Positions 7,801-54,769 of a DNA stretch of 64,000 bases are shown here, piece by piece. This DNA is from Sphingobacteriales bacterium JAD_PAG50586_3. GTDB taxonomy: Bacteria > Bacteroidota > Bacteroidia > CAMBQF01. The position numbers and the translations under genes are program-made. The stretch lies in assembly GCA_023213195.1 (NCBI GenBank), contig CP096135.1:2040842-2104841 (forward strand). Direction: 5' to 3'. Numbering within the stretch: position 1 is the stretch's first letter; each line of letters begins with the position of its first letter. The notes beneath the pieces were generated by a model. It saw only the letters and a program-made list of their open reading frames with translations, was not told the DNA's origin and made no database searches.

Positions 7801-10800
7801 ATTATATTATTGCCTGCCCCGGTAGTATCGTTTAGTGGTTTAGACCCTGAGTACTGTATCAGCGAGCCTACTGTTACCCTTGCAGGTTCTCCTGCCGGTG
7901 GTACATTTAGCGGCTTAGGCATTATTGGTAACACGTTTAGCCCAACATTAACTGTTGCCGGCCAACATGTTATTACATACTCTTATACTGATGGCAATGC
8001 TTGTTCTAACACATCAACCCAAACTGTTCAAATTAACGGTTTACCATTTGTTAGCTTAAGCGGTTTAGCTACATCATACTGTACAGATAATTCAAACCCT
8101 GTAGCCTTAACTATACTTCCTGCTGCAGGTGGTACACTTTCTGGTCCTAGTATTTCAGGTACCGATTTTGTTCCATCAAACGCAGGTACAGGTTTTGTAA
8201 CTATTACCTATACTTATACTGATGTTAACGGTTGTTCTAATACATCAACCCAAAATACTGTTGTTAACGCATTACCTGTTGTAGGTATCAGCGGCTTAGC
8301 CAATGCGTACTGCGTAAGCGCATCGCCTGCTAACTTAGGGGGTATACCTAACGGTGGCACTTTTAGCGGCACAGGTATATCGGGCAACACATTTGACCCA
8401 GCAGTAGCCGGTATAGGTACATTTACTATTACCTATGCTTATACTGATGGTAACTCTTGCTCTAACTCTACTACGCAAAACGTAACGGTTAACGACCTTC
8501 CGGTTGTATCAATTTCTAACCTTGCCAATGCTTACTGTGAAGATGCAGGCCCAATCAACCTTATAGCAACACCTCCGGGCGGTTCTTTTACAGGTATTGG
8601 TGTATCAAACAACCAGTTATTCCCATCTATTGTAAACGGTAACCAAACATTGGTAACCTATACCTATACTGATGGTTTAAGCTGTTCAAACTCTACATCT
8701 CAGCTTGTTACTATTAATGATTTACCGGTTGTAAGCTTTACAGGCCTTAACCCTGAGTACTGCGTAAGCGCAGGCCCTGTTACTTTAACAGGCACACCGG
8801 GTGCTGGTACATTTAGCGGTGCTGGCATATCAGGTACTACTTTTGACCCTGCAACAGCAGGCGTAGGCACACACGTAATTACCTTTGCTTATACCGATGG
8901 TAACTCTTGCTCTAATAGCGCTACCCAAACAGTGGTTGTAAATACTCTGCCATTCGTAGCTATCAGCAACTTACAATCTGCATACTGTGTTAGTGTTACT
9001 AACGTTCCATTAACAGGTATACCAGCAGGTGGCACATTTAGCGGTATTGGCGTAAGCGGTAACACTTTTAGCCCGGCTACTGCAGGCCAAGGTTCGCACA
9101 CCATTACCTACACTTATAGCGATGGTAACGGTTGCTCTAACACTGCTACACAAGTAGTAGCTGTTAACCCACTTCCAACATTATCTATAAGCGGCTTAGG
9201 CGCTGCATACTGTGTTGATGCTGCTCCTGTAAACATTGGTGGCTCACCTGTGGGTGGCACATTCAGTGGTTCAGGTATATCAGGCAACACATTTAGCCCT
9301 GCACTAGCCGGTGCCGGTACTTATAACATTACTTACTCTTATACCGATGGTAACGGCTGTTCTAACACAGCTACCCAGGGTGTTGTTGTAAACGCACTTC
9401 CTGTTGTTGCATTTAGCGGCTTAAACTCTACCTACTGTATTGGTAACGTTACCCCACAAGCACTAATTGGTGCCCCAGCGGGTGGCACATTTACCGGTGC
9501 AGGTATTTCAGGTACAGACTTTACTCCATCTGCAACAGGTGTTGGTACACACGTTATTACTTATAGCTATACCGATGTTAACTCTTGTTCAAACTCAGTA
9601 AGCCAAACAGTAACTGTAAACAACTTCCCACAAGTTGCTATAACTAACCTTGCGGCTCAATACTGTATATCAGCAGGTGTACAAACCCTAAGTGGTTTGC
9701 CATCGGGCGGTATATTTAGCGGCACAGGTGTAACCGGTGTTAGCTTTGACCCTGCAGCAGCAGGTGTAGGTATACATACTGTTACTTATACTTATTCTGA
9801 TGTTAATGGCTGTTCAAACACTGCTACCCAACAAGTACAGGTATATGCCCAGCCAACGGTTACTATCAGCGGTTTAGCTTCTACCTTCTGCTCTAACGAT
9901 GCTGCTGTAACCTTTACCGGTACACCTTCTGGTGGAACATTCAGCGGCCCTGAGCGTATCCGGTAACACATTCTTCCCAGCTATAGCAGGTGCAGGTGTA
10001 CATACCGTAACCTATGCTTATACAGATGGTAACGGTTGTGGTAACACCGCTACACAACAAGTAACGGTAGCACCAGCCCCAAGCCCTGTAATATCTGGCT
10101 TAGCCGCAAGCTACTGTATTAGCGCTAACCCTGTAACTGTAAACGTAACACCAGCCGGTGGTACATTCAGCGGTCCGGGCATGTCGGGTAATACCTTTAC
10201 CCCACAAACTGCCGGTGCAGGTTCTCACACTATTACATATACTGTAACCAGCGGAGGTTGTACAGGTACAACATCTGTACAGGTAATTGTTAACCCACTT
10301 CCAACAGTTGGTTTTGCGGGCTTACTAAATGCTTACTGCACCACATCGGCTGATGTTCAAATGACAGCTTTCCCTCAAGGTGGCTCATTTACAGGCACAG
10401 GTGTGTCGGGCAACATATTCAGCCCATCGCAAGCCGGTGTAGGTACATTTACCGTTAACTACTCGTATACTGATGGTAACCTTTGCTCTAACTCATACTC
10501 TCAGTTTGTAACCGTAAACCCTGCTCCGGTAGTATCGTTTACAGGTTTAGGCACTGCTGAGTACTGCGAAGATGCGGTTCCGGTTACTTTAACTGGTACT
10601 CCTGCCGGTGGCACATTTAGCGGTCCAGGCATGTCTGGCGATAACTTTAACCCAACATTTGCGGGTGCCGGTACACACACCATTACCTACCAATACACTA
10701 CAGGTAACGGTTGCAGCGGTACAAGCACACAAACAGTTGTTGTTAACGCTACTCCATCTGTTCAAATTACAGGCCTAAGCAGCAACTACTGTGTTGATGC

Positions 10801-12555: not shown

Positions 12556-13701
12556 ATGAGAGTTTATCTTGATAATGCTGCTACTACTGCCTTGGATAAA
12601 GAAGTGGTAGAGGCAATGCTTCCTTACATGACCGAAAAGTTTGGCAACCCATCATCAACCCACCAATATGGGTCAGAGGTTAGGGTAGCCATAGAGCAGG
12701 CCCGTAAGATTATTGCTAGGCAGCTTAACGTGTCGCCATCAGAGATTATTTTTACCTCTGGCGGTACCGAAGCCAACAATATGGCCCTGCGATGTAGTAC
12801 CGAGTTTATGGGTATTAAACACGCCATAACCTCGCCCCTTGAGCACCACGCCGTGTTGCACACCCTGGAAGATTTACACAAACAGGGCAAGATTAAACTA
12901 AGCCTTGTTAATGTTGATGCCCACGGCAATATTGACCTAAACCACCTGGAGCAACTGCTTACCGGTTACGATGGTCAAACCCTGGTATCGCTAATGCACG
13001 CCAATAACGAGATTGGCAACCTACTCCCCATAGAACAAGTATCTGCCCTTTGCGATAAATACAAGGCCATATTCCATACCGATACGGTGCAGACTATGTG
13101 CCATTACCCGTTAGACTTTCAAGCCATTAAGGTGCACTTTGCATCGTGTGCGGCCCATAAATTCCACGGCCCTAAAGGGGTTGGTTTTTTATACATGAGC
13201 GCCGATGTAAAAATACCCCCATTTATTACCGGTGGCGCCCAAGAGCGTAACATGCGCGGCGGTACCGAGAATGTTTATGGCATTGTAGGTCTTGGCAAAG
13301 CTTTTGAAATTGCCCACCGCGACATGGACAAAGAAACAGCCCACATAAGCGAACTGAAAAGCTACATGATAGGCCGCTTAAAGAACGAGTTTCCCGGTGT
13401 GGAGTTTAACGGCGAAAGCGGCAACATGGAGAAATCGTTATACACTGTTCTTAACGTATCACTACCTAAGACCGATATAGGTGAAATGCTGCTGTTTAAC
13501 CTTGATATTAATGGCGTAGCCGCCTCGGGTGGCTCAGCATGCTCATCAGGCAGCGATATTGGCTCGCACGTACTCCGCGCCCTTAACTGCGATATGGAGC
13601 GCCCTGCCGTTCGTTTCTCCTTCTGCAAAAACACCCAACTGCAAGACATTGACTATGCTGTTGATGTATTAAAGAACATCCTTAAGCCGGTAGTTGCTTA
13701 A
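12556..13701 (+). CDS. iscS: Cysteine desulfurase (class V aminotransferase, IscS/NifS family)
   Basis: MRVYLDNAATT..., GNPSSTH, TSGGTEANN, PLP-lysine region. The ORF-track N-terminal extension from 12469 is judged spurious. Confidence 0.85.
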   Translation: MRVYLDNAATTALDKEVVEAMLPYMTEKFGNPSSTHQYGSEVRVAIEQARKIIARQLNVSPSEIIFTSGGTEANNMALRCSTEFMGIKHAITSPLEHHAVLHTLEDLHKQGKIKLSLVNVDAHGNIDLNHLEQLLTGYDGQTLVSLMHANNEIGNLLPIEQVSALCDKYKAIFHTDTVQTMCHYPLDFQAIKVHFASCAAHKFHGPKGVGFLYMSADVKIPPFITGGAQERNMRGGTENVYGIVGLGKAFEIAHRDMDKETAHISELKSYMIGRLKNEFPGVEFNGESGNMEKSLYTVLNVSLPKTDIGEMLLFNLDINGVAASGGSACSSGSDIGSHVLRALNCDMERPAVRFSFCKNTQLQDIDYAVDVLKNILKPVVA

Positions 13702-13750
13702 TCAGTAGTCAGAATTCAGTAGTCAGAGGTCAGGGTTCAGTAGTCAGAAG
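13702..13750 (+). repeat. 7 x 7-bp tandem repeat (TCAGTAG-like) immediately after the iscS stop codon
   Basis: TAA|tcagtag tcagaat tcagtag tcagagg tcagggt tcagtag tcagaag. A related array lies after the S8 protease stop at 22077-22111. Confidence 0.8.
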
Positions 13751-14970
13751 GTATAAGTTTTGTCTTCCCTTACTCTATGTAGCTAATTCTCAATTTTCGC
13801 GGAGTTTTTTTGTAAAGTATTTTCATGCTCTACAATACCTAATGCACCAACAACTCTCCCTTTTAAAGGGAGTACCTCCAACGTAGTTGGAGGGGAGGGA
13901 TTATTTGCCAATCCCTACAGCATGTCCCAAAGGGATGCCTTTGGCATAGCTAATACACTCGTTTTCGAGGCTGCATTTTAAAGGTCCCTCTCATTGAGAG
14001 GGTGGATGTAGCCAATGGCGACAGACGGGAGAGGGTATTTTTAGGGTGCCGCACGTTGTTATGTCTTTATTTTTCATTTTTAGCTTTTCGTTTTTCATTT
14101 ATAAAACCCTTACAGCGTGTCCCAAAGGGATGCCTTTGGCATAGCTAATGCACTCATTTTCGCGCCCAATTTTTAAGGCTCTCCCCTGCAAAGGGGAGTA
14201 CTCCTATCTCGCTTAGGCGAGATAGGAGGGAGGTATTTCCTCTCCCGTCATCCACCTGACGGCGGCTGCTACCTCCGCCCGGATGAATCCATTCGGACGG
14301 GCTCTCAATGAGAGGGACCTTTCATCTATCCTCATAATTAATAATTCATAATTACTAATTATTGAAAAACACCTTTAGGCAACCTGCCGTAGCAAATCGC
14401 CTAAAAGTGACAATTTCTTATCATAACCGGTTAGCTACTGACCAACAGAATGGCCTGTTGTTTAAGCCTGTCCTCTTGCTAAACTGTTTATCTTAAACTC
14501 TCAATCTATACGCCCCTCTCCTTTGGGGGAGGGGTTGGGGTGGGGCTTCCATTAATTTCTGAATCGTAATAAGCATTGTAGGTACTATAATAAGTTCCCC
14601 CTTTTTAAAGGGGGTGTTTAGTGCAAAGCACTAAACGGGGGATTTTAAAACCTCGTAAAACTCTCCCTTGTAAAGGGAGTGGATGTCGCTACAAAGCGAC
14701 AGACGAGGGATTTCACCGCGCGGCTGTTTTCGTCATCCCGAACTTGTTTCGGGATCTCCTAATTAACCTTTAGGAAAGGGTTGTTTATTTGTATTTGCAA
14801 ATACGTTTACAAAGATACAACAATACAACATCATTTGTCAAGTGTAAAATAAACATTGTTAATAATTATTTTTATTAATAGATCGCAAAGCGCATACTTT
14901 GTAAACAACTCTCCCTTTTAAAGGGAGTACCTCCAACGTAGTTGGAGGGGAGGGATTTTAGTGTAGCGTA
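13751..14970. repeat. 1.2-kb gene-free region composed of several families of short hairpin-forming repeats (MITE/REP-like). The families recur elsewhere in the window.
   Basis: No ORF. The 52-bp unit caactctcccttttaaagggagtacctccaacgtagttggaggggagggatt occurs at 13851-13912 and 14906-14957, with an insertion variant at 16763-16850. cagcgtgtcccaaagggatgcctttggcatagctaat occurs at ~13918 and ~14113. The inverted pair ccctctcattgagaggg / ctctcaatgagaggg occurs at ~13990 and ~14305. cgtcatcccgaacttgtttcgggatc occurs at 14730-14755 and 730-755. Confidence 0.8.
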
Positions 14971-14971
14971 A

Positions 14972-15913: not shown

Positions 15914-16450
15914 TCAGATAACAATATACTCAGCCGGTACAAAATCAGTAAGCCAAACATTGTTGTCCGATAGGTAAAATATATGCCCATCGGCCAACAT
16001 GGTTACGGTATCAATATGCAACACTATGGGCTTGCCATGCCTGCTGCCTACCTGTGTGGCAGTAGCTATATTGTCTGATAAATGTACATGCTGCCTTTCG
16101 CCTTTCAGCAGGCCTTTTTCTTTAATACTATCCAGGTTTTTTAACGCTGTGCCGTGGTATAATATAGCCGGCGGGGTTTGTGGTTGAAGTTTTAAATCTA
16201 CCTCGACAGAATGCCCTTGATTAGCCCTTATTTTGGTAAAATCATCGTTAAAGGCAAAACGCTTTTTGGTGTTTTCGTCAACTATTGCTTTCAACTCATC
16301 AAAGGTAATTGCAGTGCCATGGGCGTTGAATTTCTGCAACAAATCAGCCACATCGGCCCAACCGTTTTCATCAAGGGTAACGCCAATGGTTTCGGGCTTG
16401 TGCCTAAGCACCAGGCTTATAAATTTACTAAGGTGTGTGTGGTTCGACAT
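15914..16450 (-). CDS. kptA: RNA 2'-phosphotransferase (Tpt1/KptA family)
   Basis: LSKFISLVLRHKPETIGVTLDENGWADV, IRANQGHS, PPAILYHGT, RQHVHLS and VWLTDFVPAEYI match Tpt1 family motifs. Confidence 0.85.
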   Translation of the reverse strand: MSNHTHLSKFISLVLRHKPETIGVTLDENGWADVADLLQKFNAHGTAITFDELKAIVDENTKKRFAFNDDFTKIRANQGHSVEVDLKLQPQTPPAILYHGTALKNLDSIKEKGLLKGERQHVHLSDNIATATQVGSRHGKPIVLHIDTVTMLADGHIFYLSDNNVWLTDFVPAEYIVI

Positions 16451-16463
16451 TGAATTGTACGTG

Positions 16464-16745
16464 CTATATCTTAGAAACCTTATCTACTATACTGGCTAAA
16501 GCCGTTTCGGTTCCAACTTCATCAATATCCACCTCAAGCAGCTTTTTATTGTTTAGTGTTACTGTGTAAATATTGTGGTTCTCATTGCTATCAACCTGAC
16601 TAATGGTTAGCCTGTGGTATAGTTTAAAAAACACAATATAGGCGGCGCTATCAGGCTCAACTGTTTTACTTTCTTTAATAAGCGCATAGCCCTTTATCTT
16701 TACAATAGGCTGCACCTTTTCTTTTACTAAATCAATAAATAACAT
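16464..16745 (-). CDS. Hypothetical protein (93 aa)
   Basis: ORF immediately upstream of kptA on the same strand. No recognisable motif. Confidence 0.4.
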   Translation of the reverse strand: MLFIDLVKEKVQPIVKIKGYALIKESKTVEPDSAAYIVFFKLYHRLTISQVDSNENHNIYTVTLNNKKLLEVDIDEVGTETALASIVDKVSKI

Positions 16746-16762
16746 AATGGAGCAAAGTTAAA

Positions 16763-17009
16763 CAACTCTCCCTTAATAAGGCCCGCCCGGATAAATGGAT
16801 TTATCCATTCGGACGGGGAGTACCTCCAACGCAGTTGGAGGGGAGGGATTATTAGCAACGAATTTATATTACCGCTTGGTGGGATTCCTGCTTTCGCAGG
16901 AATGACGTTTTAACTATAGTGGTTTAGTAATCTTTAAATCTATTTAATCTTGATTAATCTGCGGTTCAGACAAATAATCTATTTAATCTTGATTAATCTG
17001 CGGTTCAGA
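16763..17009. repeat. Intergenic repeats: a third copy of the 52-bp hairpin unit (with insertion) plus a direct duplication of atctatttaatcttgattaatctgcggttcagac
   Basis: 16763-16850 matches 13851-13912. The direct repeats at 16935-16968 and 16975-17008 end exactly at the pyrB stop. The same ttaatctgcggttcaga motif overlaps the kptA stop (15903-15920). Confidence 0.75.
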
Positions 17010-17948
17010 CTACGCTTCTGAAATATTCTTTTGCCCCGCCAGCAGGTACAGCACCGCCATACGCACCGCAACACCGTTTTCTACCTGGTCTAGTATAATA
17101 GACTGGTCAGAGTCGGCTACATCGCTAGTAATCTCTATGCCACGGTTTATAGGGCCGGGGTGCATTATGGTAATCTTCTTGCTAAGGCTGTCAAGGCGCT
17201 CTTTGTTAAGGCCATACAGCATGGTATACTCCCGCAACGATGGGAAGTACTTAATATCCTGCCTTTCCAGCTGAATGCGCAGCATATTGGCAACATCGCA
17301 CCACTCCAGGGCCTTCATCAGGTTAGGTTCAACACGAACTCCTAGCGATGTGATGAATTTAGGCATTAGGGTAGGAGGGCCGCACACTACCACTTCGGCA
17401 CCCATTTTATTTAGTAGAAAGATGTTTGACAGCGCTACACGCGAGTGCAGAATATCGCCTACAATAGCCACTTTAAGGCCTTTAAGGCTGCCGTGCACCT
17501 CCAGCATTGAGTAGGCATCTAACAACGCTTGTGTAGGGTGCTCGTGCGCGCCATCTCCGGCGTTTACAATTTTGGCCTTTATGTGTTTGGCAAGGAACAC
17601 GCCCGCACCCGGTTTTGGGTGGCGCATTACTACCATATCCACCTTCATGGCCAATATGTTGTTTACGGTATCAATAAGGGTTTCGCCCTTGCTAACGGAT
17701 GATGATGATGCGGCAAAGTTTACCACATCGGCACTCAGGCGTTTCTCGGCCAGCTCAAACGATAAGCGGGTACGGGTACTATTCTCAAAAAACAGGTTAG
17801 CAATGGTTACATCGCGCAGCGATGGCACCCGTTTTATCGGACGGTTTAAAACCTCTTTAAACTGTTTGGCGGTAGATAAAATAAGCTCAATGTCAGACAC
17901 CGTAAGGTCTTTAATTCCTAATAAGTGTTGTACGCTTAAAGCTGACAT
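17010..17948 (-). CDS. pyrB: Aspartate carbamoyltransferase catalytic subunit
   Basis: ENSTRTR carbamoyl-phosphate motif, HPxQ, 312 aa. Confidence 0.9.
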   Translation of the reverse strand: MSALSVQHLLGIKDLTVSDIELILSTAKQFKEVLNRPIKRVPSLRDVTIANLFFENSTRTRLSFELAEKRLSADVVNFAASSSSVSKGETLIDTVNNILAMKVDMVVMRHPKPGAGVFLAKHIKAKIVNAGDGAHEHPTQALLDAYSMLEVHGSLKGLKVAIVGDILHSRVALSNIFLLNKMGAEVVVCGPPTLMPKFITSLGVRVEPNLMKALEWCDVANMLRIQLERQDIKYFPSLREYTMLYGLNKERLDSLSKKITIMHPGPINRGIEITSDVADSDQSIILDQVENGVAVRMAVLYLLAGQKNISEA

Positions 17949-17980
17949 ATATCTTCCGTTTATTTACTTTTCTAATAGTA

Positions 17981-18502
17981 TTACCTATGGTCTGTTCCTT
18001 CATTTTCTACCCACTCTACCTTTACCTTTTGGCTTTGTATGGTATCTACCACACGGCCTACATAATCGGGCTGTATAGGCAGGTGGCGACTATAGCGGCG
18101 GTCTACAAAGGCCAGCAGCTCTACACTTGCAGGGCGGCCAAATTGCAGCAGCGCTTCCATAGCGGCGCGTATGGTGCGGCCGGTATACAATACATCGTCT
18201 ACCAGCACCACTTTTTTATCTTCAATTAAAAAATCAATATTGGTATCGTAAGCCGCTAAAGGCTCTGCCTGGTGCCGAAAATCGTCGCGGTAAAAGGTAA
18301 TATCCAGCGTGCCCGATGTTATGTTTTGTTGGGTAATATCCTTTAACTGTTTAGCCAACCGGTTAGCTACGTAAGCCCCGCGTGGTTGTATGCCAATAAT
18401 AACAGTGTCAGAAAAAGAATTGTGATTTTCAATCAACTCATAACAAAGGCGGCTCAGCGTCAGCTTAAATTCATCCGGACCTAGCAGCACTTTATGGGTC
18501 AT
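17981..18502 (-). CDS. pyrR: Bifunctional pyr operon regulator/uracil phosphoribosyltransferase PyrR
   Basis: PRTase motif VVLVDDVLYTGRTIRAA. Start chosen at the internal MTHKVLL. Confidence 0.85.
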   Translation of the reverse strand: MTHKVLLGPDEFKLTLSRLCYELIENHNSFSDTVIIGIQPRGAYVANRLAKQLKDITQQNITSGTLDITFYRDDFRHQAEPLAAYDTNIDFLIEDKKVVLVDDVLYTGRTIRAAMEALLQFGRPASVELLAFVDRRYSRHLPIQPDYVGRVVDTIQSQKVKVEWVENEGTDHR

Positions 18503-18561
18503 GCTGCAAATATAGTGGTTTACATCAAATTTAGAATAAAAATTTCCCCATATCAATTTAA

Positions 18562-18813
18562 GTGCTCAGTACGTCTCCCGCCCTTTGAATTTGAGGTTAG
18601 AAAACCGGCATAGCGTTTTGAAACGGGGTACCCGCAGAGAAAGTGAACGTCCCGCTTGCCGGGAAAGCGCGCGCTGTTTGAAGTCACGCAAGGCGTGACG
18701 AGTTTGCGCGGTTTAGTGAACGCCCTCGTAGCGGGTCGTTGAAAAATGCAGCCGGGAGTTTTCTTTGTTTCGTTTCTTTTGCGGAAAAAGAAATGAAAAC
18801 CGCCGGTAGGCAA
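18562..18813 (-). ncRNA. Conserved ~230-bp structured element in the pyrR 5' leader (copy B); second copy upstream of ansA. Candidate cis-regulatory RNA or MITE.
   Basis: The reverse complement aligns with 56918-57150 with a near-identical core aaaccgcgcaaactcgtcacgccttgcgtgacttcaaacagcgcgcgcttt and conserved hairpins. Both copies end 45-60 bp before the start codon of the downstream gene, in the same relative orientation. Confidence 0.45.
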
Positions 18814-19131
18814 TAAAGAATTAACAGGTAGGAATTTAACCCCCTCCTAATATTAGGAGGGGGCAGAGGGTGGTAGCTTTTGTAAGGTTTTCCCCACTAC
18901 CCCGTCTAATAAACCAAATGCAATAAGCGGGTGTTCTATACTTAGATAAACGCTGTTTTATCTGTTTTGGCATAGGGCTTGCATTATTAACACTAAGGGC
19001 AAATACTTGTGAAAAACTTACAGGCGTACCCTTTAAAATGGTAAAAGTATTTTGACTAATTATGGAGAAGTAATTTTACCCAAGAACCACCAAGCAAAAT
19101 GCTTGGCGTAAAATGTAAAAATTTAACGCCT

Positions 19132-19695
19132 ATGAAAACGAAGATCGTTAATAGCGTAAAAGCGGGGTCGCTGCTAATATCAGAACCCTTTTTGGTAGAT
19201 TACTATTTTAAACGTGCTGTGGTGTTAATACCCGAGCATAACGAGAAAGGCTCTATGGGCTTTGTGCTAAACAAGCCCCTTAACATAAGTATTAATGATG
19301 TTATAGCCGATTTTCCGGAGTTTGATGCCCAGTTGTATTCTGGCGGGCCGGTACAAAACGATATGCTATACTTTATACATAACCTGGGCAAAGCCATAGA
19401 GGGTAGCCACCGCATTACCAAAGACCTTTACTGGGGCGGCGACTTTGACAAGCTTAAAGCCATGATTTTGGCCGGTAAAGTAACCCCCGAAAATGTGCGC
19501 TTTTTTGCAGGCTACTCAGGTTGGGAAAAAGGCCAGCTCGAAAACGAGATAGGACATAGCTCGTGGCTTATTGCCGATACCCCTAAAGGGTTAATACAGG
19601 AAGATACCGAAGACCTGTGGGGCAAACTAATCCGCGAGAGCGAAACACAATATGCCATTTGGGGCAACTTCCCTGAGAATCCCTCAATGAATTAA
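19132..19695 (+). CDS. yqgE: YqgE/AlgH family protein (UPF0301)
   Basis: GSLLISEPFLVDYYFKRAVVLIPEHNEKGSMGFVLNKPL matches the family signature. Confidence 0.75.
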   Translation: MKTKIVNSVKAGSLLISEPFLVDYYFKRAVVLIPEHNEKGSMGFVLNKPLNISINDVIADFPEFDAQLYSGGPVQNDMLYFIHNLGKAIEGSHRITKDLYWGGDFDKLKAMILAGKVTPENVRFFAGYSGWEKGQLENEIGHSSWLIADTPKGLIQEDTEDLWGKLIRESETQYAIWGNFPENPSMN

Positions 19696-20068
19696 TATTT
19701 TTTTCATATAGTAATTACAGAATAAATAACCCTATAGGGGTTAAATGTACTTCAGTTTTACTATTGACATTCCGCTCGTACGGAGCACTGTTAATTAGAC
19801 CCGGAGAGAGGAAATTACCTTGTGCGTGGGATGTCCACGAAACGTGCGAACCTGAATGGAGTTGAGCAGGTGGTTTTGTGCGGCTGTCTAGCGCGGCGAA
19901 ACGGAATGAGGGTTGGGTTTCGTGGGGTCTTTTTGGTTACTTTTTGGACAAGCAAAAAGTAATAAAGCCGTCGGCAGACAACAAAAAGACATCAAAAAGT
20001 AAAGTCCCTATTTTTTAGGAAAGGCTTAATATTATTAGAACGATAATCACATTGAGCGTAGTCGAACC

Positions 20069-20913
20069 CTACTCCACCGACTCTGCCAGCCACTCCATCA
20101 ACTGTTTTGATGTATTGTTGAAATACCTGCGTTTACCATACGCCATAGCCCAACGTATACCGTTTATGGTATTGGTAAGAAAAATCTCATCAGCTGCTTC
20201 TAATGCGGCAGGCGCCATAGATTGCTCGCGGACTTTTATACCACCTTCTTCGGCAATTTCTATCAGGTTGCGGCGCATTACACCGGCTATGCAGCCATCG
20301 CTCAAAGGAGGAGTAAATATGATGCCATTCTTCACCATAAACAGGTTAGATGATGTGGTTTCTACCACCCGTTCATCATCATTCACCAAAATAGCTTCGT
20401 CCCACTTATGGCTGGCCGCATGCGTTGCAGCCAAAGCATAAAGTAAAGAGTTCCCTGTTTTATATTGAGAATAGGTAGAGCGGTGCTTATGGTTTTCGGT
20501 ATACACCCCAATAGAAAAACCTTTCTCGTTTAAAATGTAGGTAGCATCAGCCAGCGGGCGGAGCTCTAAAACAATAGATACATCATTGCTTTCGGGCTTA
20601 TAGGTAAGGCCGTTGTTGCGGTAGGCTGTCATGCGGGCACGGCCACCGTTGGTAATTTTATTTACCTCTTTCAGCTTGTCAAAAGCCTTTTCTACCACAC
20701 TAACGGTAAGCCATTTGGGCACATCCATTTTAATGGCTTTCATACCGCCGGTAAAACGTTCAAAATGGTCGTCAATAAAACATATATTGCCATTGGCCTA
20801 GCGCACGCTTTCAAACACACAATCGCCAAAGCGGAATGCGCGGTTGGTTACGCCAATGTTTAAATCGGCTTCTTTTACAAACTCGTTGTTATGAAAAATA
20901 GTAAGGTTATCCA
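20069..20913 (-). CDS. Class IV aminotransferase (aminodeoxychorismate lyase/branched-chain aminotransferase fold), interrupted by an in-frame TAG at 20798-20800
   Basis: MDNLTIFHNNEF...FESVR*ANG...MKAIKMDVP... then the class-IV fold motifs. The TAG sits in the pentamer CTAGG and CAG restores CCAGG. Confidence 0.7.
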
Positions 20914-21402
20914 TTAGGCTATCATGCTTAAATAATCGCCAAGGTTGGCGTTTGAGGGGACTAAAATAGAGTTAACACCTGCTGCTTGTGCGGCTTCAAT
21001 ATCGCGCTCGCGGTCGCCAATAAAATAGCTTTGCGCAGGGTCAATATCAAAACGGGCTAGGCCTTTTTCTACCAATAAACTTCCCGGCTTGCGGCACAGG
21101 CATTTGCTAACGGTAGGGTGGTGGGGGCAATAATAAATCTCGGCAAACCGTATACCAAAGTTTGCAAAATGCTCCTTTATGTAACTATGCACTTCGTGTA
21201 CTTCTTCGTGGGTGTAAATATCTTGTGCAATGCCACTTTGGTTGGTAATTATAATGAAGATATAATCCCTGCTGCGCAGTTCCTGCAAAAACTCAACCGC
21301 GCCATCATTAATAATTAAATCATCAACCAGTCAGGTATAATCTCCCCGCTCGTGGTTTATAACCCCGTCTCGGTCTAAAAATATGGCTTTAGCTTTTTGC
21401 AT
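20914..21402 (-). CDS. gmhB: HAD-IIIA family hydrolase (D,D-heptose 1,7-bisphosphate phosphatase/histidinol-phosphatase-like), interrupted by an in-frame TGA at 21331-21333 (reverse strand)
   Basis: MQKAKAIFLDRDGVINHERGDYT*LVDD... then IIITNQSGIAQ and CxCRKP motifs. The TGA sits in CCTGA and TGG would restore CCTGG. Confidence 0.65.
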
Positions 21403-21404
21403 TA

Positions 21405-22027
21405 TTATAGCCCCTGCTGAATTTGGTCTACAAAGCGGGCTGCCGCTCCGGGGTAAACAATTAAGGTGTAGATAATGCCATATACCGCACCCCTAAGTGG
21501 GCGCTGTGGTTAATATTATCGCCACCGCGGCGGCCTGCGTATATCGAATATATAGTATAGAGAATAGCAAAAACTATAGCGGGCATGGGTATAAAAAATA
21601 CCCCAATGGTTGAAAAGGGGAAGAACATGATAAACGAAAATATAACCGCCGATACCGCACCCGATGCGCCCAGCGAGTTATACCAAATATCGTTTTTATG
21701 CTTTTCGAATGTATAGATATCGGCAAATAGTATGCCGCCAATGTATAAACCTATAAAGTAGATAGGTGCTTTGCCCTCAAATAACTCCGCAAATACAGCC
21801 TGTTCCAATACTTTGCCAAACGAGTAAAGGGCAATCATGTTAAAGGCAAGGTGCATAACATCGGCATGCAAAAAAGCGCCGGTAAAAAAGCGCCACCACT
21901 CCCTGCGGTGCTTTACCGCGTAGGGGTTAAACATATAACGGGCTTTAAGCGCGGGCTGGTTAAAAGCCGCTACTGAAAACAATACGTTTATTACAATTAA
22001 TACCAGCGTTATGGGGTGACCTTGCAT
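21405..22027 (-). CDS. Rhomboid family intramembrane serine protease (C-terminal frameshift in a G-run)
   Basis: GASGAV (GxSG) and the AHLGG His motif. The tail rejoins as HLGGAVYGIIYTLIVYPG if G4 is read as G5 at ~21506. Confidence 0.75.
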
Positions 22028-39729: not shown

Positions 39730-41493
39730 ATGAAACAATTCTTTAAATTTTTCTTTGCCTCGTGCCTTAGCTTTTTAGTAAGCGTTGGGTTATTAGTACT
39801 AATAGGTTTTTGGGTTATCAGCGCCGCAACCTCGTCTGCCGCAAAAGATGGCGGCGTAGATGTTGAAGACAATTCTGTACTGTATGTTACCCTTAACAAC
39901 GCTATTGTAGACCATACAACATCAGATGGTTTTCCCAGCATGTTGGGTGGCAGCTCTACCATGGGTCTTGATGATATTTTAACATCAATAAAATATGCTA
40001 AAACCGACGATAAAATTAAAGGCATATTTTTAGAAGTAACCAACCTTACTACCGGTATGGCCACTGCTGAAGAGCTGCGCAACTCGCTTATAGATTTTAA
40101 AACATCGGGTAAGTTTATTTATGCCTACTCTGATTATTATAGCTAGGGTGCCTACTACCTTTCATCGGTTGCCGATAAAGTGTATGTAAACCCACAAGGT
40201 GGTGTTGAGTTTAAAGGCCTTTCTGCCGAATTGATATTTATTAAAGGAACACTGGAAAAATTAGGCGTAGAGCCGCAAATTATTCGCCATGGCAAGTTTA
40301 AAAGCGCTATAGAGCCTTTAATTAACGATAAAATGAGCGAGAGTAACCGCTTGCAAACCCGCACCTACATTAGCGCTTTGTGGAATAAAATGCTGGATGG
40401 CATTAGCAAATCGCGCAAAATTACCACTGCCGAATTACAAACTATTGCTGATGGTTTATTGCTTGTAGATTCTAAAGCCGCTGTAGACCGCAAGTTTGTT
40501 GATGGCGTTAAGTACAGGGATGAGGTGCTGGATATGCTGAAAGATAAAACCGGTGCCGAATCTGTTAAAAAAATTGAGTTTGTTACCCTTAACAACTACG
40601 TAAAAGTTGGCAAGCCTGATGTGGGCGACCGTAACAAAAAAGTAGCCGTTATATTTGCTGAAGGTAGCATTGTTGATGGTAAAGGCGATGATAGCAGCAT
40701 TGGTTCGGCAACCCTGTCTCGCCACCTGCGCAATGCCCGTTTAGATGATAAAATTAAAGCCGTAGTGCTTCGTGTTAACTCGCCGGGTGGTAGCGCCTTA
40801 GCATCTGATGTTATTTGGAGGGAAGTATTATTGTTGAAAAAAGCCAAGCCTGTTATTGTTTCTATGGGCGATGTAGCCGCATCGGGCGGTTACTACATTG
40901 CTTGTGCTGCCGATACTATTGTGGCGCAACCTAATACCATTACCGGTTCTATTGGTGTGTTTGGTGTATTGTGGAATGCAAAAGGCCTTACAGATAAACT
41001 GGGTGTTAGCGTTGATACGGTTAAAACCGGTGCCATGGCCGACCTTGGTACTGCCAGCCGCGCTATGACAGAGCCTGAACGCAAATACATTCAAAATCAA
41101 ATAGAAATGATTTACGATGTGTTTATTGGCAAAGTGGCCGATGGACGCCGAATGACTAAAGCCGATGTAGATAGCATAGGTCAGGGCCGTGTGTGGAGTG
41201 GAATTGATGCCAAACGCATTGGTTTGGTAGATGTGCTTGGCGGTATGGATGTGGCTATAGCAATTGCAGCTAAAAAAGCCAAGCTTGACGATTACAGCGT
41301 TGTGTTTTTACCACGCACCGAAAAAGGCATTACCAAACTACTTAAAGACCTTAGCGGCGAAGATGACGATAAGGTGAGCAAGATTATGATGCATGAGTTA
41401 GGCCCTGATTACAGGTACTACCAATACCTGCGCAATGCCCGCCAAATAAAAGGCATACAGGCCCGCATGCCTTATCAAATTGAGATTAACTAA
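39730..41493 (+). CDS. sppA: Signal peptide peptidase SppA (67K type, tandem S49 domains), interrupted by an in-frame TAG at 40144-40146
   Basis: ...YAYSDYYS*GAYYLSSVADKVYVNPQGG... and a second domain with the GSIGV serine motif. The TAG lies in CTAGG and CAG (Gln, the consensus residue) restores CCAGG. Confidence 0.85.
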
Positions 41494-41667: not shown

Positions 41668-42194
41668 ATGAAAAAATTTGTACTCGTTTTATTATTCGTT
41701 TTTAGTGTAGGCTTTGCTAATCAAGGCTTTGCAGCTAATACCGGTACTGTTTCAGTTCCAACAGATTCTGTAGTAAATACCAAAACCAGCTTTTTTCTTG
41801 GTCTACCTTAGACCACATGGTATGCTATGCTAAAGATTTTATTGGAATTCCTTACCGCTACGGCTCTATGAGTTTAAAGGCTTTTGATTGTTCTGGTTTT
41901 ACCTCTTATGTATTTCAGCAATTTGGTATGTTGTTGCCACGTTCTGCCCGCGACCAAGCCGGTTTGGGTAAAAAAGTACACGAGTGCGATGCCCGCAAAG
42001 GCGACCTTGTTTTCTTTAAAGGCCGCAGTACATCATCATCATTTGTTGGCCACGTAGGTATTGTTATTTCAGAGATTGGCGATAAACTAACCTTTATTCA
42101 CGCATCGGTACACAAAGGCATTACTATAGATACTATAGACCTGCGCTACTACAAAGACCGCTTTTTGTACGTTAAGCGCGTATTAGATTTGTAA
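41668..42194 (+). CDS. NlpC/P60 (C40) family peptidase with signal peptide; one T-run frameshift (~41788)
   Basis: The signal peptide MKKFVLVLLFVF is in one frame and the P60 core FDCSGF...GDLVFF...GHVGIVI in the next. They rejoin if T6 is read as T7. Confidence 0.75.
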
Positions 42195-43364: not shown

Positions 43365-43410
43365 ATTCGATTTTTTACAAATTTGTAACATTTATTGTAA
43401 TTTTGACTAA

Positions 43411-44238
43411 ATGGAACCTATTATTCGCCAAGCACTTTTAGATTTAGTTGCAAGCCCTGTTGATGAATTGTTTAATAATCAAGTATTCCAAAAAGATAAT
43501 GGAGCTTTTTATCGTAATACAGTTTTAAGTTAAGGTAGAACTGATTTTACAGAACCTTTTGTTACTGATAATGCTACAGTAATAACAGCTGAGCAAAAGG
43601 TTTTATTGTACTGTTATTATTACATGCAAATGCATTTTGAAAGTAGTAGCGAACTGTTTAGTAAATATAATAAAGTTGTAGAAAAGCCATTAATATTTGT
43701 TGACTTTGGATGTGGTCCTTTAACAGGAGGTATAGCATTACAAAATCATTTTTCCGATCCTTCGTTTCATCTACATTATGTTGGGATTGATATTTCTAAC
43801 GAAATGATTTCTAAAGCAAAAGAATTTCAAAATTACCAAGAATTATTCAATCCTGTAAATCAACATTTTGAATGGCTCAATGATTATATTCAATTGCCAG
43901 AAATATTATTACCCTTAATGCAACATTTAAAAGAATATTCATTAATATTCAATTTTTCTTATTTTTTTGCAAGTCATAGTGTTGATCCTCAAATAGTATT
44001 TGCTACTACACAACAAATATTGCAAAGTTTGGGAGATAATACATTTTGGGTTTTATATCAAAATCCCACAGCTTGGAGCCTACATGAAAAATGGACAGTT
44101 TATAGAAACTTATTACTTCAAAATTTGTTTGTTAACAAGGCGTTGATTTCTAATCCATTTCCATACGGATATCAAGATATTTTTGCAGAAAAACCATTAA
44201 ATTTGTATACTACTTGCGAAATATTACGTAGAAACTAG
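43411..44238 (+). CDS. Class I SAM-dependent methyltransferase (low-GC island); in-frame TAA at 43531-43533, so either a pseudogene or the true start is TTG 43606
   Basis: Motif I FVDFGCGPLTGG and post-I YVGIDISNEMISKA. About 30% GC. An N-terminal 40-codon in-frame segment precedes the TAA. Confidence 0.55.
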
Positions 44239-44243
44239 TTGTA

Positions 44244-44847
44244 ATGAATTTATTTAGTCAAATATTGGAAAGTCCCGAAACTGAAATTGCAAAAATTTCA
44301 GGATTGCAATACGTTGAAAATTATTTGACTAGGCAAGAGCATGACGAGATTTTGAATGCAATAGACGCTGCTCAATGGATTAATGATATAAAGCGTAGGG
44401 TTCAGCATTATGGCTTTAAATATGATTATAAAGCGAGAAGAATAGATTATTCGATGAAAATTGGGGACTTACCTGAATGGGCTCAAAAAGTTGCAGTTAG
44501 ATTATATAGAGATGGTTATTTTGACGTTATTCCTGATCAAGTAATTGTTAATGAATATATGCCTAGGTCAAGGTATAACACCTCATATTGATTGTGAACC
44601 TTGTTTTGAGGATACTTTAATCTCTATATCTTTGGGTTCTTATTGTGTAATGGACTTTGGTAAAAAGTTAAGTTCAGAAAAAGTGCCTGTACTATTAGCT
44701 CCAAGAAGCATTGTCATCTTAAAAGGTGAAAGTCGTTATACATGGACTCATGGAATAGCCCCTCGCAAAACTGATGTTTATCATGATATGAAGATTGAGC
44801 GTAGAAGGCGTATTTCACTTACTTTCCGCAAAACAATCATTAAGTAA
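44244..44847 (+). CDS. alkB: AlkB-like Fe(II)/2-oxoglutarate-dependent dioxygenase (nucleic-acid demethylase), with a +1 frameshift at cctAgg 44562-44567
   Basis: VIVNEYMP(G)QGITPHID.E...SLGS.CVM.F......PRSIVILKGESRYTWTHGI......RISLTFR. The ORFs 44244-44591 and 44545-44847 rejoin if cctagg was CCTGG. Confidence 0.75.
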
Positions 44848-44855
44848 CTATCTTA

Positions 44856-45038
44856 CTATAACGACTGGTTACTGTTTGCTGAAATAATGTTTTTCAATAC
44901 TCTCTTAGCTTCTTCTGTGTTATAACCCAGATTGTTTTTAGATTCTGCTAGAGCATTATTAAGGCGTTCAACAAATATTTGCTTTTCAGTATCTGGTATA
45001 GGGTTTATAATATCAGGAACTTTATGTTTCTTAGCCAT
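44856..45038 (-). CDS. Small hypothetical protein (60 aa) whose last 8 codons duplicate the M23 peptidase C-terminus
   Basis: It ends ...ISANSNQSL. The M23 gene ends ...ISANSNQSFD. The DNA is aacgactggttact at 44863-44876 and 45062-45075. Confidence 0.4.
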   Translation of the reverse strand: MAKKHKVPDIINPIPDTEKQIFVERLNNALAESKNNLGYNTEEAKRVLKNIISANSNQSL

Positions 45039-45055
45039 ATAATTTATTTATACGC

Positions 45056-46031
45056 TTAATCAAACGACTGGTTACTATTGGCCGAGATCTTCAACATAGC
45101 CTCATACTCGTCGGGGGTAAGGTCGTTAAAGTAGTAGTTAATGGGGTTTTGGTGCTCCCCGTTCTTCATTACCTCATAATGTAAGTGGGGCCCGGTAGAT
45201 TTACCCGTGTTGCCTACATAGCCAATAACCTCGCCACGTTTAACCTTTTGGCCGGGGCGTACTTTGGTACGGCTCAAGTGGCCGTAAAGCGTCATATATC
45301 CATAGCCGTGGTCTACCCTTATGTGGTTGCCGTAGCCCGATGCCTGCGCATCGGCACGTTGTACTACACCATCGCCTGTTGCATACACTTCTGTACCAAT
45401 AGGGGCGGCAAAGTCCATACCGGCGTGGAACTTGGGCATTTTATAAATAGGGTCGGTACGCCAGCCAAAGCCCGAAGCCATTTGCTTTAAATCTTTGGTA
45501 GATACAGGTTGAATGGCAGGTATAGCGCCCAACATATTAGCCTTATTCTGCACCAGCTTTAAAATCTCGTCGTACGATTTTGACTGTACTACAATTTGCT
45601 TAGAAAGAAAATCGAGCTTTTGCGTAGCACGCACCATCAGTTCAGAGTTATCGTAGCCCTGCAACTGGGCGTAACGGTCGGTACCGCCGTAGCCTGCCCT
45701 GCGCACTCCGGTAGGTATAGGCTCGGCCTCAAAAATAACCCGGTAAATATTGTCGTCGCGCTTTTGTAAATCGTCCAACACCATAAAAGACTGGTCTATG
45801 CGCTTGTTTAGCAGGTCGTATTGTAGTTTAAGCTGGTCAAGCTCGCGTGCAAGTTGCTTTTCTTTAGGCGACTCAAAAGTGTTGTAGGCAATAATCATGG
45901 TTATGGCAGCAAAAACCAGCCCCGTTGCTAAGGTACCAAAGCCCTTGTTTTATAATATCAGCCGGACGCAAACGTACTTTTTCGTACGATAGCGACTTAG
46001 TATTAAAATAATATCTCTTTTTTGTAGACAT
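45056..46031 (-). CDS. M23 family metallopeptidase with N-terminal TM anchor; G-run frameshift near 45930
   Basis: HAGMDFAAP, HIRVDHG and PHLHYEV zinc motifs. The N-terminus MSTKKRYYF...GLGTLATGLVFAAITMIIA rejoins via a GGG/GG run. Confidence 0.8.
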
Positions 46032-46172: not shown

Positions 46173-47039
46173 ATGAAAGGAATTATTTTGGCAGGCGGTT
46201 CGGGTACACGTTTATACCCTATAACCATGGCTATAAGCAAGCAGTTAATGCCTATTTATGATAAGCCAATGATTTATTATCCGCTATCGGTTTTAATGTC
46301 GGCGGGCATAAACGAGATATTAATAATATCAACCCCCAAGATTTGCCGGGTTTTAAACGTTTGCTTGGCGATGGTAACAGTTTGGGCTGTAGCTTTAGCT
46401 ATGCAGAACAGCATGTGCCTAACGGACTGGCCCAGGCTTTTGTTATTGGCAAAGAGTTTATTGGTAACGATAAGGTAGCCCTTATTTTGGGCGATAATAT
46501 ATTTTATGGTACCGGGCTAGACCAGTTGCTGGTAGAAAATAACGACCCAACCGGCGGTATTGTGTTTGCCTACCACGTTTCAGACCCCGAGCGCTATGGT
46601 GTGGTGGAGTTTGATAGCGATAAAAAAGCCATTTCTATTGAAGAAAAGCCGGAGAAACCTAAATCGAACTATGCGGTACCGGGCTTGTATTTTTATGATA
46701 ACAGCGTGGTAGAAGTTGCCGAAAACCTGCAACCCAGCCCACGCGGTGAGTATGAAATTACCGATGTAAACAAGTATTACCTTAAAAACAATCTGCTAAA
46801 AGTAGGGGTTTTAGACAGGGGTACTGCCTTAGTTAGATACCGGCACGTTTGCATCGTTAATGCAGGCATCGCAATTTGTGCAGGTTATAGAAGAGCGCCA
46901 GGGCCTAAAAATTGGCTGTATAGAAGAGGTTGCTTACAAGTCTGGTTTTATTAACGCAGCAGCGTTAGAAAAACTTGCGCAACCCCTGTTAAAGAGTGGT
47001 TATGGTAACTACCTTTTGAGTGTTCTAAATACAATCTAG
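46173..47039 (+). CDS. rfbA: Glucose-1-phosphate thymidylyltransferase RfbA, interrupted at the C5 run 46337-46341 and at ccttag 46826-46834
   Basis: [11 protein letters not shown], ...GDNIFYG..., and GTA(W)LDTGT restored when ccttagtt is read as cctggtt. The C-terminus ...[23 protein letters not shown] is in the third frame. Confidence 0.85.
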
Positions 47040-49381: not shown

Positions 49382-50823
49382 ATGGCAGAACAAAAAGATG
49401 TAAAACGTACCCTTGGCTTTTGGGTAGCGCTTTCTATTGTTATAGGGTCGGTAATAGGCTCGGGTATATTTAAAAAACCGGCAGTAATGGCAAGCCAGCT
49501 AGGCTCTGCCGAGTGGCTAATTGCTGTATGGGTAGTAGCGGGTATTGTTACCTTGTTTGGCGCCCTTACCACAGCGGAAATTGCAGGCATGATACCCGCT
49601 ACCGGCGGGCAATTTATGTTTTTAAAAAGGTATATGGCAATTTTGCAGGCTTTATCTATGGCTGGGCATTGTTCTCGGTTATCCAATCAGGCTCTATAGC
49701 ATCCATCACCTACATATTTGCTGAATATACAGGGTACTTTGTACACCTGCCGCGCTTTTCGGCAGATGTTGAACAATCGGTAATACTGCACCTGCCGGGC
49801 ATAGGCAAAATATTTCCACTAGAAAATTTTGGTGTAAAGCTTTTGACTATTGCCACAATATGGTTGCTAACGGCTATAAACTACCGTGGGGCAAAATTTG
49901 GCGGCGGCATACAGGTAATATTTACAGCCCTAAAGCTATTTGCCATGGTATTTATAGTAGGTATGGTATTTGGCTGGGGCAGTAACGCCCAAGTGCCGGA
50001 TATGCCTGTAATACGCACTGTAGGTACTGTAACCCTGGTAAGCTTTATGGCGGCTATGAGTGGTGCCTTTTGGGGCTACGATGGCTGGAACAGCCTTACC
50101 TACATAGCGGGCGAGATTAAGAACCCGCAGCGCAATATTGTAAGGGCCTTGTTTTTTGGGTTGCTTACCGTTATTGCCGTGTATGTAACCATCAACTTTG
50201 CTTATTTGTACGTGTTTGACATTCAAGAAATGGCACAGTCTAAGCTGGTAGCATCAGATGTTGCGGTGGCTGTAGCGGGTTTAATAGGCGGTTCTATTGT
50301 GGCTGCCGCTATTATGATGTCAACCTTTGGCGCATCTAACGGGTCGGTAATGAGCAGCGCCCGTATATATTTTGCCATGGCCCGCGAGGGGTTATTCTTT
50401 AAAAACATTGGCAAGCTGCACCCTAAATACGAAACACCCCACAACTCGTTGCTGCTGCAAGCCACCTGGGCAAGCTTATTAGTTTTAAGCGGCACGTTTG
50501 ATATATTAACCGATATGCTGGTATTTGTAGCCTGGATATTTTATGCATTCTCAGCAGGTAGTGTTATTCTGTTGCGCATACGCGAGCCCGAAACACCCCG
50601 CCCCTATAAAGTATGGGGCTACCCGTTTATCCCGGTAATATTCATATTAGTATCGAGCACCTTTTTAGGTGTAACCCTATACAATGATATTAGTATGTAT
50701 ATGCGCGGCGAAACCCAGATAATAAACTCGGTATTTGGTTTGGTAATAGTAGCTACAGGCATACCATTCTATTTCTTGTTTAAGAAGAGTGGGGGAGAGA
50801 ATGACAAGAAGCTAGCAGAGTAA
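49382..50823 (+). CDS. APC-family amino acid permease, one frameshift in T/A runs near 49600-49640
   Basis: 12 TM helices. ...GSGIF..P...GGQ(F/Y)... then KKVYGNFAGFIYGWALF... in the adjacent frame. Confidence 0.8.
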
Positions 50824-53501: not shown

Positions 53502-54769
53502 GTTTAGCTGAACGCGACAGCAAAGTTATATGGCACCCCTTTACCCCACAAAAGGGTTCGCCGCTGCCTGTTGGCATTGTTAGGGCCGAGGGATCTTATT
53601 TATACGATGAAGACGGCAAGCGCTATATAGATGGCATATCTAGCTGGTGGGTAAATTTACATGGGCATTCGCACCCTTATATTGCCGATAAAGTATCGGA
53701 GCAACTACGCACCTTAGAGCATATTATTTTTGCCGGTTTTACCCACGAACCCGCTGTGCAACTGGCCGAGCGTTTACTGGAACTTTTGCCCGGCGAACAA
53801 ACCCGTGTTTTCTATTCAGATAACGGTTCTACAGCCGTAGAAGTAGCCCTTAAAATGGCGCTGCAATACTGGTACAACAAGGGCGAAAAGCGCACCAAGA
53901 TTATTGTGCTGGAAGACAGTTACCACGGCGATACGTTTGGTTCTATGTCGCTTAGCGCACGCAGTGCGTTTACCCAGGCCTTTAACGATTGGCTTTTTGA
54001 AGTAGAGGTTGTTCCCGTACCAGTAGAGGGTAGGGAAGTAGAAGCCGTGGAAGCCATACAGGCCATTGTAAACACAGGCGAAGTTGCCGCATTTATTTTT
54101 GAGCCTATGGTGCAGGGCGTAGCCGGTATGCAGGTTATGGAACGTAGGGCTTTATCAGAAATGATGCGTGTGTGTAAAGATGCAGGCGTGGTGTGTATAG
54201 GCGATGAGGTGTTCACGGGCTTTGGCCGCACAGGTAAAGTGTTTGCATCGGAGTTCCTATCAACCAAGCCCGATATTTATTGCCTTTCTAAAGGCTTAAC
54301 AGGCGGCACCATGGCCCTTGGGGTTACTACCTGCAACCAGACGATATACGATGTCTTTGTTAGCGAGGATAGGTTAAAAACCTTCTTCCACGGGCATTCT
54401 TTTACGGCTAACCCGCTGGCCTGCGCTGCTGCTTTAGCCAGTATGGATTTGTTGATGCGCCAGTAAACCTTTGCTGCCATTCAACATATAAGCAACCGCC
54501 ATTTCGATTTTTATACCCGTATATACAATCACCCTAAAGTAAAAGCCATACGCCATAAGGGCACTATACTGGCTATTGAAATTAAGAATGAGGAAGAAAC
54601 ATCGTACTTCAATAACATAGGCCAAACAGCGCACGAGTATTTTATGGATAGGGGCGTGTTTCTTCGCCCACTAGGTAATGTGCTTTACACCTTGCCGCCC
54701 TACTGCATAAGCGATGCCGATTTAGACGAGATATACGCGGCGTTGGAAGGTTTTTTGAATAATCTATAA
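53498..54769 (+). CDS. bioA: Adenosylmethionine-8-amino-7-oxononanoate aminotransferase BioA, interrupted by an in-frame TAA at 54464-54466
   Basis: Class III PLP aminotransferase motifs and the typical C-terminus RGVFLRPLGNVLYTLPPYCISDADLDE, in frame after the TAA. The TAA context ccagTaaacc would be CCAGG if the codon were GAA. Confidence 0.85.

Follow-up and report, generated by a model that had tools for sequence, protein, structure and literature searches.

The stretch of DNA analysed here, hereafter the window, comprises 64,000 nucleotides (64 kb) of the circular record CP096135.1 from Sphingobacteriales bacterium JAD_PAG50586_3 (positions 2,040,842 to 2,104,841 of the forward strand). 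It has a G+C content of 42.6% and carries 71 intact CCWGG pentamers (W, A or T), as well as about 25 gene disruptions, 12 of which lie on would-be CCWGG pentamers and 13 of which are 1-bp indels in homopolymers. The affected genes run from an adhesin gene near 10 kb to a tandem array of cold-shock genes near 58 kb and include ftsH, cdsA, birA, rsfS and pyrR. The pyrB, kptA, DEAD-box helicase and S8 peptidase products of the window match the JAD_PAG50586_3 proteins UPT69140.1, UPT69138.1, UPT65199.1 and UPT69146.1 exactly, and the truncated gmhB open reading frame (ORF; 20914–21288) is identical over 124/124 residues to a deposited protein of the same metagenome-assembled genome (P0125), encoded on a 4,155,772-bp contig. 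No NCBI protein of JAD_PAG50586_3 corresponds to the broken mnmA, sppA or bioA fragments.

The genome announcement (PMC9583780) describes high-molecular-weight native DNA obtained from a Lake Zurich amoeba co-culture, sequenced on a PromethION FLO-PRO002 (R9.4.1) flow cell with the SQK-LSK110 kit; Guppy 5.1.15 served for basecalling, and Flye 2.9 produced the assembly at 115x coverage. The announcement gives 4869 coding sequences (CDS) for 4.16 Mb and names no polishing step. The record was thus built from nanopore reads of native DNA.

Relatives were obtained by scanning a genome collection with the M23 peptidase of the window (45056–45898), which led to syntenic contigs of freshwater Bacteroidota metagenome-assembled genomes. 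Nucleotide identity with the window was 89.6% for L001, 71–86% by segment for L003 and L039, and ~75% for L002. L125 and L126, which cover the ftsH region, came from protein searches and contig look-ups, as did L127, which spans the rhomboid protease gene, gmhB, a class-IV aminotransferase gene (AT4), pyrR and pyrB. Judged by their record names (megahit 'k141' contigs, Logan, Joint Genome Institute), these relatives are short-read-style assemblies and therefore show independently what the ancestral sequence was where the window is disrupted. Relatives found by searching metagenomes with the S8 peptidase reached no more than 63% identity and were used solely as a local homolog database. For the census, every ORF of ≥80 aa from 124 fetched loci was searched against the window with tblastn, and frame changes and in-alignment stops were chained; this approach was used instead of a codon-usage coding-potential score, which was too crude for frame changes. 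Close relatives were also aligned at the DNA level, three-frame translations were read at each suspect junction, and all stop codons with long open segments on both sides were scanned.

Disruptions on would-be CCWGG pentamers

All 12 non-homopolymer disruptions (five in-frame stops and seven frameshifts) fall on would-be copies of one short palindromic motif, CCWGG. Eight of them had been listed in an earlier, sequence-only reading of the window, and each was found where that reading had placed it, with the bases it had reported. It had also placed all other frameshifts in homopolymers, which is true of the 13 described below but not of four that it had missed, in pyrR, birA, ftsH and the M23 peptidase gene; these fall on would-be CCWGG pentamers and strengthen its case.

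All five in-frame stops are of this type, and the scan of stops between long open segments found no further one in a real coding frame of the 64-kb window. In AT4 (20797–20801, reverse strand), the gene strand has CTAGG in place of CCAGG, a C>T change of the inner cytosine, with the TAG stop at 20798–20800. Here L127 has GTACGCCAGGCCA against GTGCGCTAGGCCA in the window (ACGCCAGGCC and GCGCTAGGCC, respectively, in the site comparison) and carries GCCAGGCC at the position of the stop codon. In the gmhB-like gene for a HAD-IIIA phosphatase (21331–21335, reverse strand), the gene strand has CCTGA in place of CCTGG, an outer G>A change, with TGA at 21331–21333. This position is Trp in the four closest homologs (P0121, P0122, P0124 and L127; GDYVWL), and once TGA is changed to TGG, the ACC codon that precedes it in the window completes CCTGG. 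The mnmA gene (25757–25761, reverse strand; TAG at 25758–25760) likewise reads CTAGG on its strand, probably from CCAGG, and its single stop lies inside a full-length alignment at 73% identity. In sppA (40143–40147, forward strand; TAG at 40144–40146), CTAGG stems from CCAGG, with GCTAGGG in the window and CCCAGGG, encoding Gln, in L003. Finally, bioA (54460–54466, forward strand; TAA at 54464–54466) reads CCAGTAA, from CCAGGAA by a G>T change; L039 has CAGGAA, with Glu (GAA), in a 95%-identical alignment running across the stop, and reverting T to G yields CCAGG with the window's own CGC codon. Repair thus gives a residue that homologs or relatives also carry in gmhB (Trp), sppA (Gln) and bioA (Glu). 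The proposal that such repairs restore the family-consensus residue did not hold for mnmA, where 16 homologs vary at the stop position (H/E/D/Q/K), so that Gln is compatible but not the consensus. Relative to the same 16 homologs, MnmA is also short by one residue at two positions (GQRKGL-IAAG and KRRV-DRIEKL; 25557–25586 and 25659–25688), owing perhaps to genuine 3-nt deletions or else to additional errors left in the sequence.

Among the frameshifts, relatives carry an intact CCWGG at pyrR, ftsH and rfbA. Near the 3' end of pyrR (17984–17990, reverse strand; newly found), the gene strand reads CCATAGG, for which the true sequence would be CCAGG with a 2-nt 'TA' insertion, and the protein, which should end in GTDQVILLEK, is cut to GTDHR. 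The window has GACCATAGGT against GACC--AGGT in L127, and removing TA gives a C-terminus identical to that of the L127 PyrR. The second frameshift of ftsH (30379–30384, forward strand; newly found) reads TCAAGG, from CCAGG by a C>T change plus an inserted A; L125 and L126 have CGCC-AGGCAAAAG at this site, and the direct comparison sets CGTCAAGGCA in the window against CGCC-AGGCA in both. The second frameshift of rfbA (46827–46832, forward strand) reads CCTTAG, from CCTGG, with GCCTTAGTT in the window and GCC-TGGTT in L001 and L002. Repair recovers the GTAWLDTGT motif, as the sequence-only reading had anticipated.

The same hexamer, CCTTAG, stands on the gene strand at the newly found N-terminal frameshift of the M23 peptidase gene (45928–45933, reverse strand), where relatives read CCTTGC. 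A CCTGG origin, proposed only from the identity of this hexamer with the rfbA error, is plausible but unproven. In the newly found second frameshift of birA (28309–28315, reverse strand), the gene strand reads CCTTAGG, which would derive from CCTGG by a 'TA' insertion, the same as at the relative-confirmed pyrR site; mnmA and birA are not covered by a close relative at their sites, so the birA assignment is not relative-confirmed. The AlkB-like dioxygenase gene (44562–44567, forward strand) reads CCTAGG, from CCTGG or CCAGG with one inserted base, and only deletion of the T or the A recovers a conserved Pro-Gly together with CCWGG. In the adhesin gene (9949–9954, forward strand), CCTGAG probably stands for CCTGG with an inserted A, which shifts frame 1 to frame 2. 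Deleting the A opens a 2308-aa frame with SGPGVSG in register with SGAGISG repeats, which agrees with the insertion proposed earlier; the accompanying statement that other repeat copies encode GPGVSGNTF from ccctggcg was not borne out, as no other repeat does so and the copies encode GAGISG from GCTGGC/GCAGGT.

After repair, a single contiguous Pfam match spans the affected position in mnmA (PF03054), sppA, bioA, AT4 (PF01063), gmhB, rfbA (PF00483), ftsH (AAA domain), birA (PF03099), pyrR, the M23 peptidase gene and alkB (PF13532, E = 4e-24).

That the genes are translated through these sites, by stop-codon reassignment or programmed frameshifting, can be dismissed for practical purposes. The in-frame TGA of gmhB does align with a conserved Trp, and TGA terminates only 2 of 34 well-supported genes. 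Against this, the in-frame stops comprise all three stop codons, a single in-frame TGA occurs in ~55 kb of coding sequence, and the frameshifts (+1, +2 and -1) lack a common slippery motif. Moreover, the 34 genes end in TAA (21), TAG (11) or TGA (2); since TAG is a genuine terminator in 11 of them, recoding is rejected, as the sequence-only reading had concluded.

Homopolymer indels and chance expectation

The remaining 13 frameshifts are each a 1-bp indel in a run of 3–7 identical bases. On the reverse strand, the rhomboid protease gene (21488–21496) has a 1-bp deletion in a G run (TTAGGGGTG), where L127 is one base longer and the longer reading recovers HLGGAVYG. A lipoprotein gene (23879–24601) is hit twice, first in a CCC/TT run (24167–24175) and then in a C4 run (24014–24022), with tblastn frames passing from -1 to -3 and back to -1. 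The first birA frameshift lies in a T6 run (28353–28361), and that of a membrane protein gene (38016–39280) in a T5/A5 run (38596–38605). On the forward strand, rsfS has a 1-bp deletion in an A6 run (29195–29202); the first ftsH frameshift lies in another A6 run (29797–29807), with the FtsH_ext domain contiguous once repaired; and cdsA is interrupted at A6/A4 runs (33558–33571). An NlpC/P60 gene is shifted in a T6 run (41789–41797) that has an extra T in three relatives, rfbA is first disrupted in a C5 run (46331–46340), and an amino-acid permease gene at T5/A5 runs (49618–49629). Three cold-shock genes lie in tandem at 58306–59067, of which copy 1 is intact and copies 2 and 3 (58620–58633 and 58895–58908, reverse strand) share a 1-bp deletion at AAAAAGG(G). 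The recurrence of the same indel in the same context in two paralogs indicates that the error is systematic.

The association with CCWGG was evaluated against chance in several ways. Of the 8 non-homopolymer sites for which a relative is available, 5 (AT4, pyrR, ftsH, sppA and rfbA) have an intact CCWGG overlapping the break in that relative, where ~1% would be expected (binomial P = 5e-9); the same holds for none of the 6 homopolymer sites with such coverage. In a simulation of all sense-to-stop substitutions in 25 long intact ORFs, 8.7% of the stop-making substitutions were repairable to CCWGG (TAG 16%, TGA 9%, TAA 2%), so that five out of five would arise by chance with P ~5e-6. Where a single nucleotide has been inserted at random, CCWGG can be recovered by deletion alone within 3 nt in 3.5% of cases. 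Repair by a deletion plus one substitution succeeds by chance in 33–51%, so that the rfbA site counts only because its relatives carry CCTGG.

Motif statistics were less telling. The relatives' CCWGG pentamers are 34% conserved in the window, a figure without power as all pentamers range over 4–53% at 75–90% nucleotide identity. CTAGG/CCTAG occurs at 0.44 per kb versus ~0.11 in the pooled close relatives (~4x), an ambiguous result since CTAG overall is also denser, and window k-mer densities showed no enrichment of CTAGG among CTAGN. Apart from a purine 5' of the CCAGG strand, the reconstructed sites have only CCWGG in common; an extended symmetric motif, RCCWGGY (R, purine; Y, pyrimidine), was considered and dropped, as 4 of the 12 depart from it.

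Error spectrum and probable origin

The erroneous forms are heterogeneous: CTAGG, TCAGG, CCAGT, CCTGAG, CCTAGG, CCTTAG(G), CCATAGG and TCAAGG. Viewed on the CCAGG strand, they concentrate on the CC side of the motif (three cases of CTAGG, two of CTAAGG, and TCAGG, CTCAGG, CCTAAGG, CCATAGG, TCAAGG and CCTAGG). Insertions are almost always 'A' or 'TA' after W. An inner-cytosine C>T change accounts for only 3 of the 12 cases, and the others are further substitutions, +1/+2 insertions and complex changes.

We consider it very probable that the window belongs to an unpolished Nanopore R9.4.1 assembly of native DNA that retains homopolymer and CCWGG errors, the latter most likely arising from a modified cytosine. 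The assembly methods and the joint CCWGG/homopolymer spectrum bear out the preference of the sequence-only reading for long-read basecalling error at modified CCWGG. Under this scheme, a modified cytosine within CCWGG would shift the pore current away from the signal learned by the basecaller and lead to wrong k-mers, while homopolymer length errors would represent a second systematic error of basecalling or consensus. A CCWGG miscall would survive a 115x consensus because the error is systematic, and one that falls within a gene in the right register would appear as a stop or a frameshift. Most such miscalls create a spurious TAG, which would account for the three in-frame TAG stops. In the organism itself, the genes that look disrupted are almost certainly whole.

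The alternative put forward earlier, that the changes are real mutations generated by deamination of 5-methylcytosine (5mC) at Dcm sites in a Vsr-deficient background and that the genes are genuine pseudogenes, finds some echo in the data. The stops in AT4, mnmA and sppA are exactly inner-cytosine C>T changes, and two synonymous differences also lie within CCTGG: the window reads CCTAG at 21057–21061 and 32626–32630 where L127 and L125 read CCTGG, exchanging the Leu codons CTG (relative) and CTA (window). Silent miscalls at CCWGG or true divergence may lie behind these two differences. However, 9 of the 12 gene-breaking changes are impossible by deamination, as they comprise an outer G>A change, a G>T transversion, +1/+2 insertions and complex changes. 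In addition, 13 homopolymer indels occur alongside, the assembly is an unpolished nanopore one, and an organism predicted to be fast-growing (PMC9583780) would have to lack functional ftsH, cdsA, birA and pyrR. With only three inner-cytosine C>T changes among the 12, deamination is rejected as highly improbable.

Several observations weigh against the favoured explanation. Only 12 of ~83 CCWGG sites are visibly affected, and at mnmA, birA and the M23 peptidase gene the CCWGG assignment was not drawn from a relative's sequence. The base 5' of the CCAGG strand is a purine at all 12 affected sites (8 G, 4 A) compared with 33 of the 71 intact ones (Fisher P = 3e-4), and GCCAGG is disrupted at 8 of its 18 occurrences; sequence context therefore contributes to the error. 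According to the Trycycler paper, moreover, Dcm errors had largely gone from R9.4.1 Guppy assemblies of Dcm+ species by 2021. From this trend, Guppy 5.1.15 should handle canonical Dcm 5mC better, which leaves room for another modification, a fast basecalling model or a context effect. Taken to its limit, a context effect would be a pure weakness of R9.4.1/Guppy/Flye at (G/A)CCAGG k-mers with no DNA modification at all. Beyond the purine bias, this is favoured by the 71 CCWGG sites that were read correctly and by the fact that Guppy models from ~2020 on largely cope with Dcm sites. On the other hand, the CCWGG errors described by Wick in 2019 were tied to Dcm methylation and disappeared with a model trained on methylated DNA, a benefit restricted to Enterobacteriaceae, and modification-induced strand-specific errors are general in nanopore reads of bacteria and absent from whole-genome-amplified controls. 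The affected motif is moreover a palindromic 5-mer and a classic methylase target, which a pure k-mer effect would single out only by a strange coincidence. We therefore regard bare sequence as an improbable cause and modification as the one to be inferred for the miscalls.

On these grounds, it is reasonable to infer from the error pattern that CCWGG is modified in this organism, and the modification may be Dcm-type 5mC placed by an active m5C methyltransferase, as the sequence-only reading had proposed. The consensus miscalls touch motif positions 1, 2, 4 and 5 as well as the W/G junction, and hence they do not distinguish 5mC from N4-methylcytosine or the inner from the outer cytosine. N4-methylcytosine, methylation of the outer cytosine or a bulkier group in place of Dcm-type inner-cytosine 5mC is unlikely, although it deserves consideration: a non-canonical modification would explain the failure of Guppy at CCWGG in 2021–22 and the dominance of 'TA'/'A' insertions over substitutions. 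MvaI/BstNI-type N4-methylcytosine CCWGG methylases would fit equally well. The window itself contains no C5-cytosine methyltransferase (PF00145-type) or vsr gene within its 64 kb. Its sole methyltransferase-like ORF (43606–44238) matches generic S-adenosylmethionine (SAM)-dependent methyltransferase models below gathering scores.

The pairing of CCWGG and homopolymer errors is a known sequencing artefact rather than biology, and it is real, highly non-random and larger than first reported. With about one gene-breaking error per 2.5 kb in the window, pseudogene calls, the count of 4869 CDS, the completeness estimate and metabolic reconstructions derived from CP096135.1 are all affected, and the record needs polishing before use. 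Scans for pseudogenes, recoding or frameshifting give false positives on such assemblies, for which the pairing of the two error types offers a quick diagnostic. The same pattern provides indirect evidence that a freshwater lineage without cultivated members modifies its DNA at CCWGG.

Further features and comparison with known systems

Several features of the window lie outside the error pattern. NCBI accession numbers jump from UPT69138–69146 at 15–23 kb (15914–23805) to UPT65199 at 59 kb (59104–60231), so the start/end junction of CP096135.1 probably lies within the window; gene order is continuous with the relatives across 33.7–56.7 kb. GATC occurs 19 times in 64 kb, compared with ~240 expected from base composition, and at 0–0.9 per kb in L001, L002, L003, L125 and L126. 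Because the tetramer is likewise rare in these independent assemblies of close relatives, its avoidance is lineage-wide and real, not a sequencing artefact. TCCGA, GAGAC and ACGTC are 3–4-fold under-represented in the window relative to Markov expectation. A 1.7-kb insertion (43378–45056), absent from L001, L002 and L003, carries the SAM-methyltransferase-like ORF mentioned above and the gene of the AlkB-like 2-oxoglutarate/Fe(II) dioxygenase (44244–44847). Between ftsH and a LUD-domain gene, a segment at ~31636–32408 does not align to L125 or L126 and contains an ORF of 219 aa (31709–32368) with no Pfam match.

Within 13700–14970, an ORF-free stretch of 1.2 kb is dense with REP-like palindromic repeats and includes a perfect 54-nt direct repeat (13849–13902 and 14904–14957). 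A third copy at 16797–16850 is 69% identical overall and near-identical in its 3' half. No Rfam match was obtained in the REP-like repeat regions (13700–14970 and 16760–16850). A 207-nt dispersed inverted repeat of 84% identity has one copy upstream of the pyrR-pyrB operon (18616–18815) and another upstream of an asparaginase gene (56915–57118); it may have a regulatory role or be mobile.

The error pattern itself has a close precedent in the Oxford Nanopore Technologies (ONT) data of Wick, Judd and Holt (2019; Genome Biol 20:129), in which ~70% of the consensus errors of a Dcm+ genome fell in CCAGG/CCTGG, most of the remainder lay in homopolymers, and the CCWGG errors vanished once the model had been trained on methylated DNA. 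The window shares with these R9.4 errors the motif, the co-occurrence with homopolymers, the platform family and the use of native DNA, and in both cases errors persist at >100x coverage because they are systematic. It differs in that the host is an uncultivated freshwater Bacteroidota (order AKYH767) and not an enterobacterium, that the basecaller is much later (Guppy 5.1.15), that only the subset of sites with a 5' purine is visibly affected, and that many errors are 1–2 bp 'TA'/'A' insertions, not substitutions. With the inner-cytosine methylation of Escherichia coli Dcm (EcoRII-type) and its associated Vsr very-short-patch repair, the window has the target pentamer in common, and three of its changes mimic the C>T outcome of 5mC deamination. 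It differs in that its 64 kb show no such methyltransferase and no vsr gene, and in that another base or another position of the motif may carry the modification. Hammerhead (Genome Res 2024, PMC11610603) relies on the same principle, namely that a methylated motif is revealed by basecalling errors; it exploits strand asymmetry at the level of reads, whereas the window is known from its final consensus alone.

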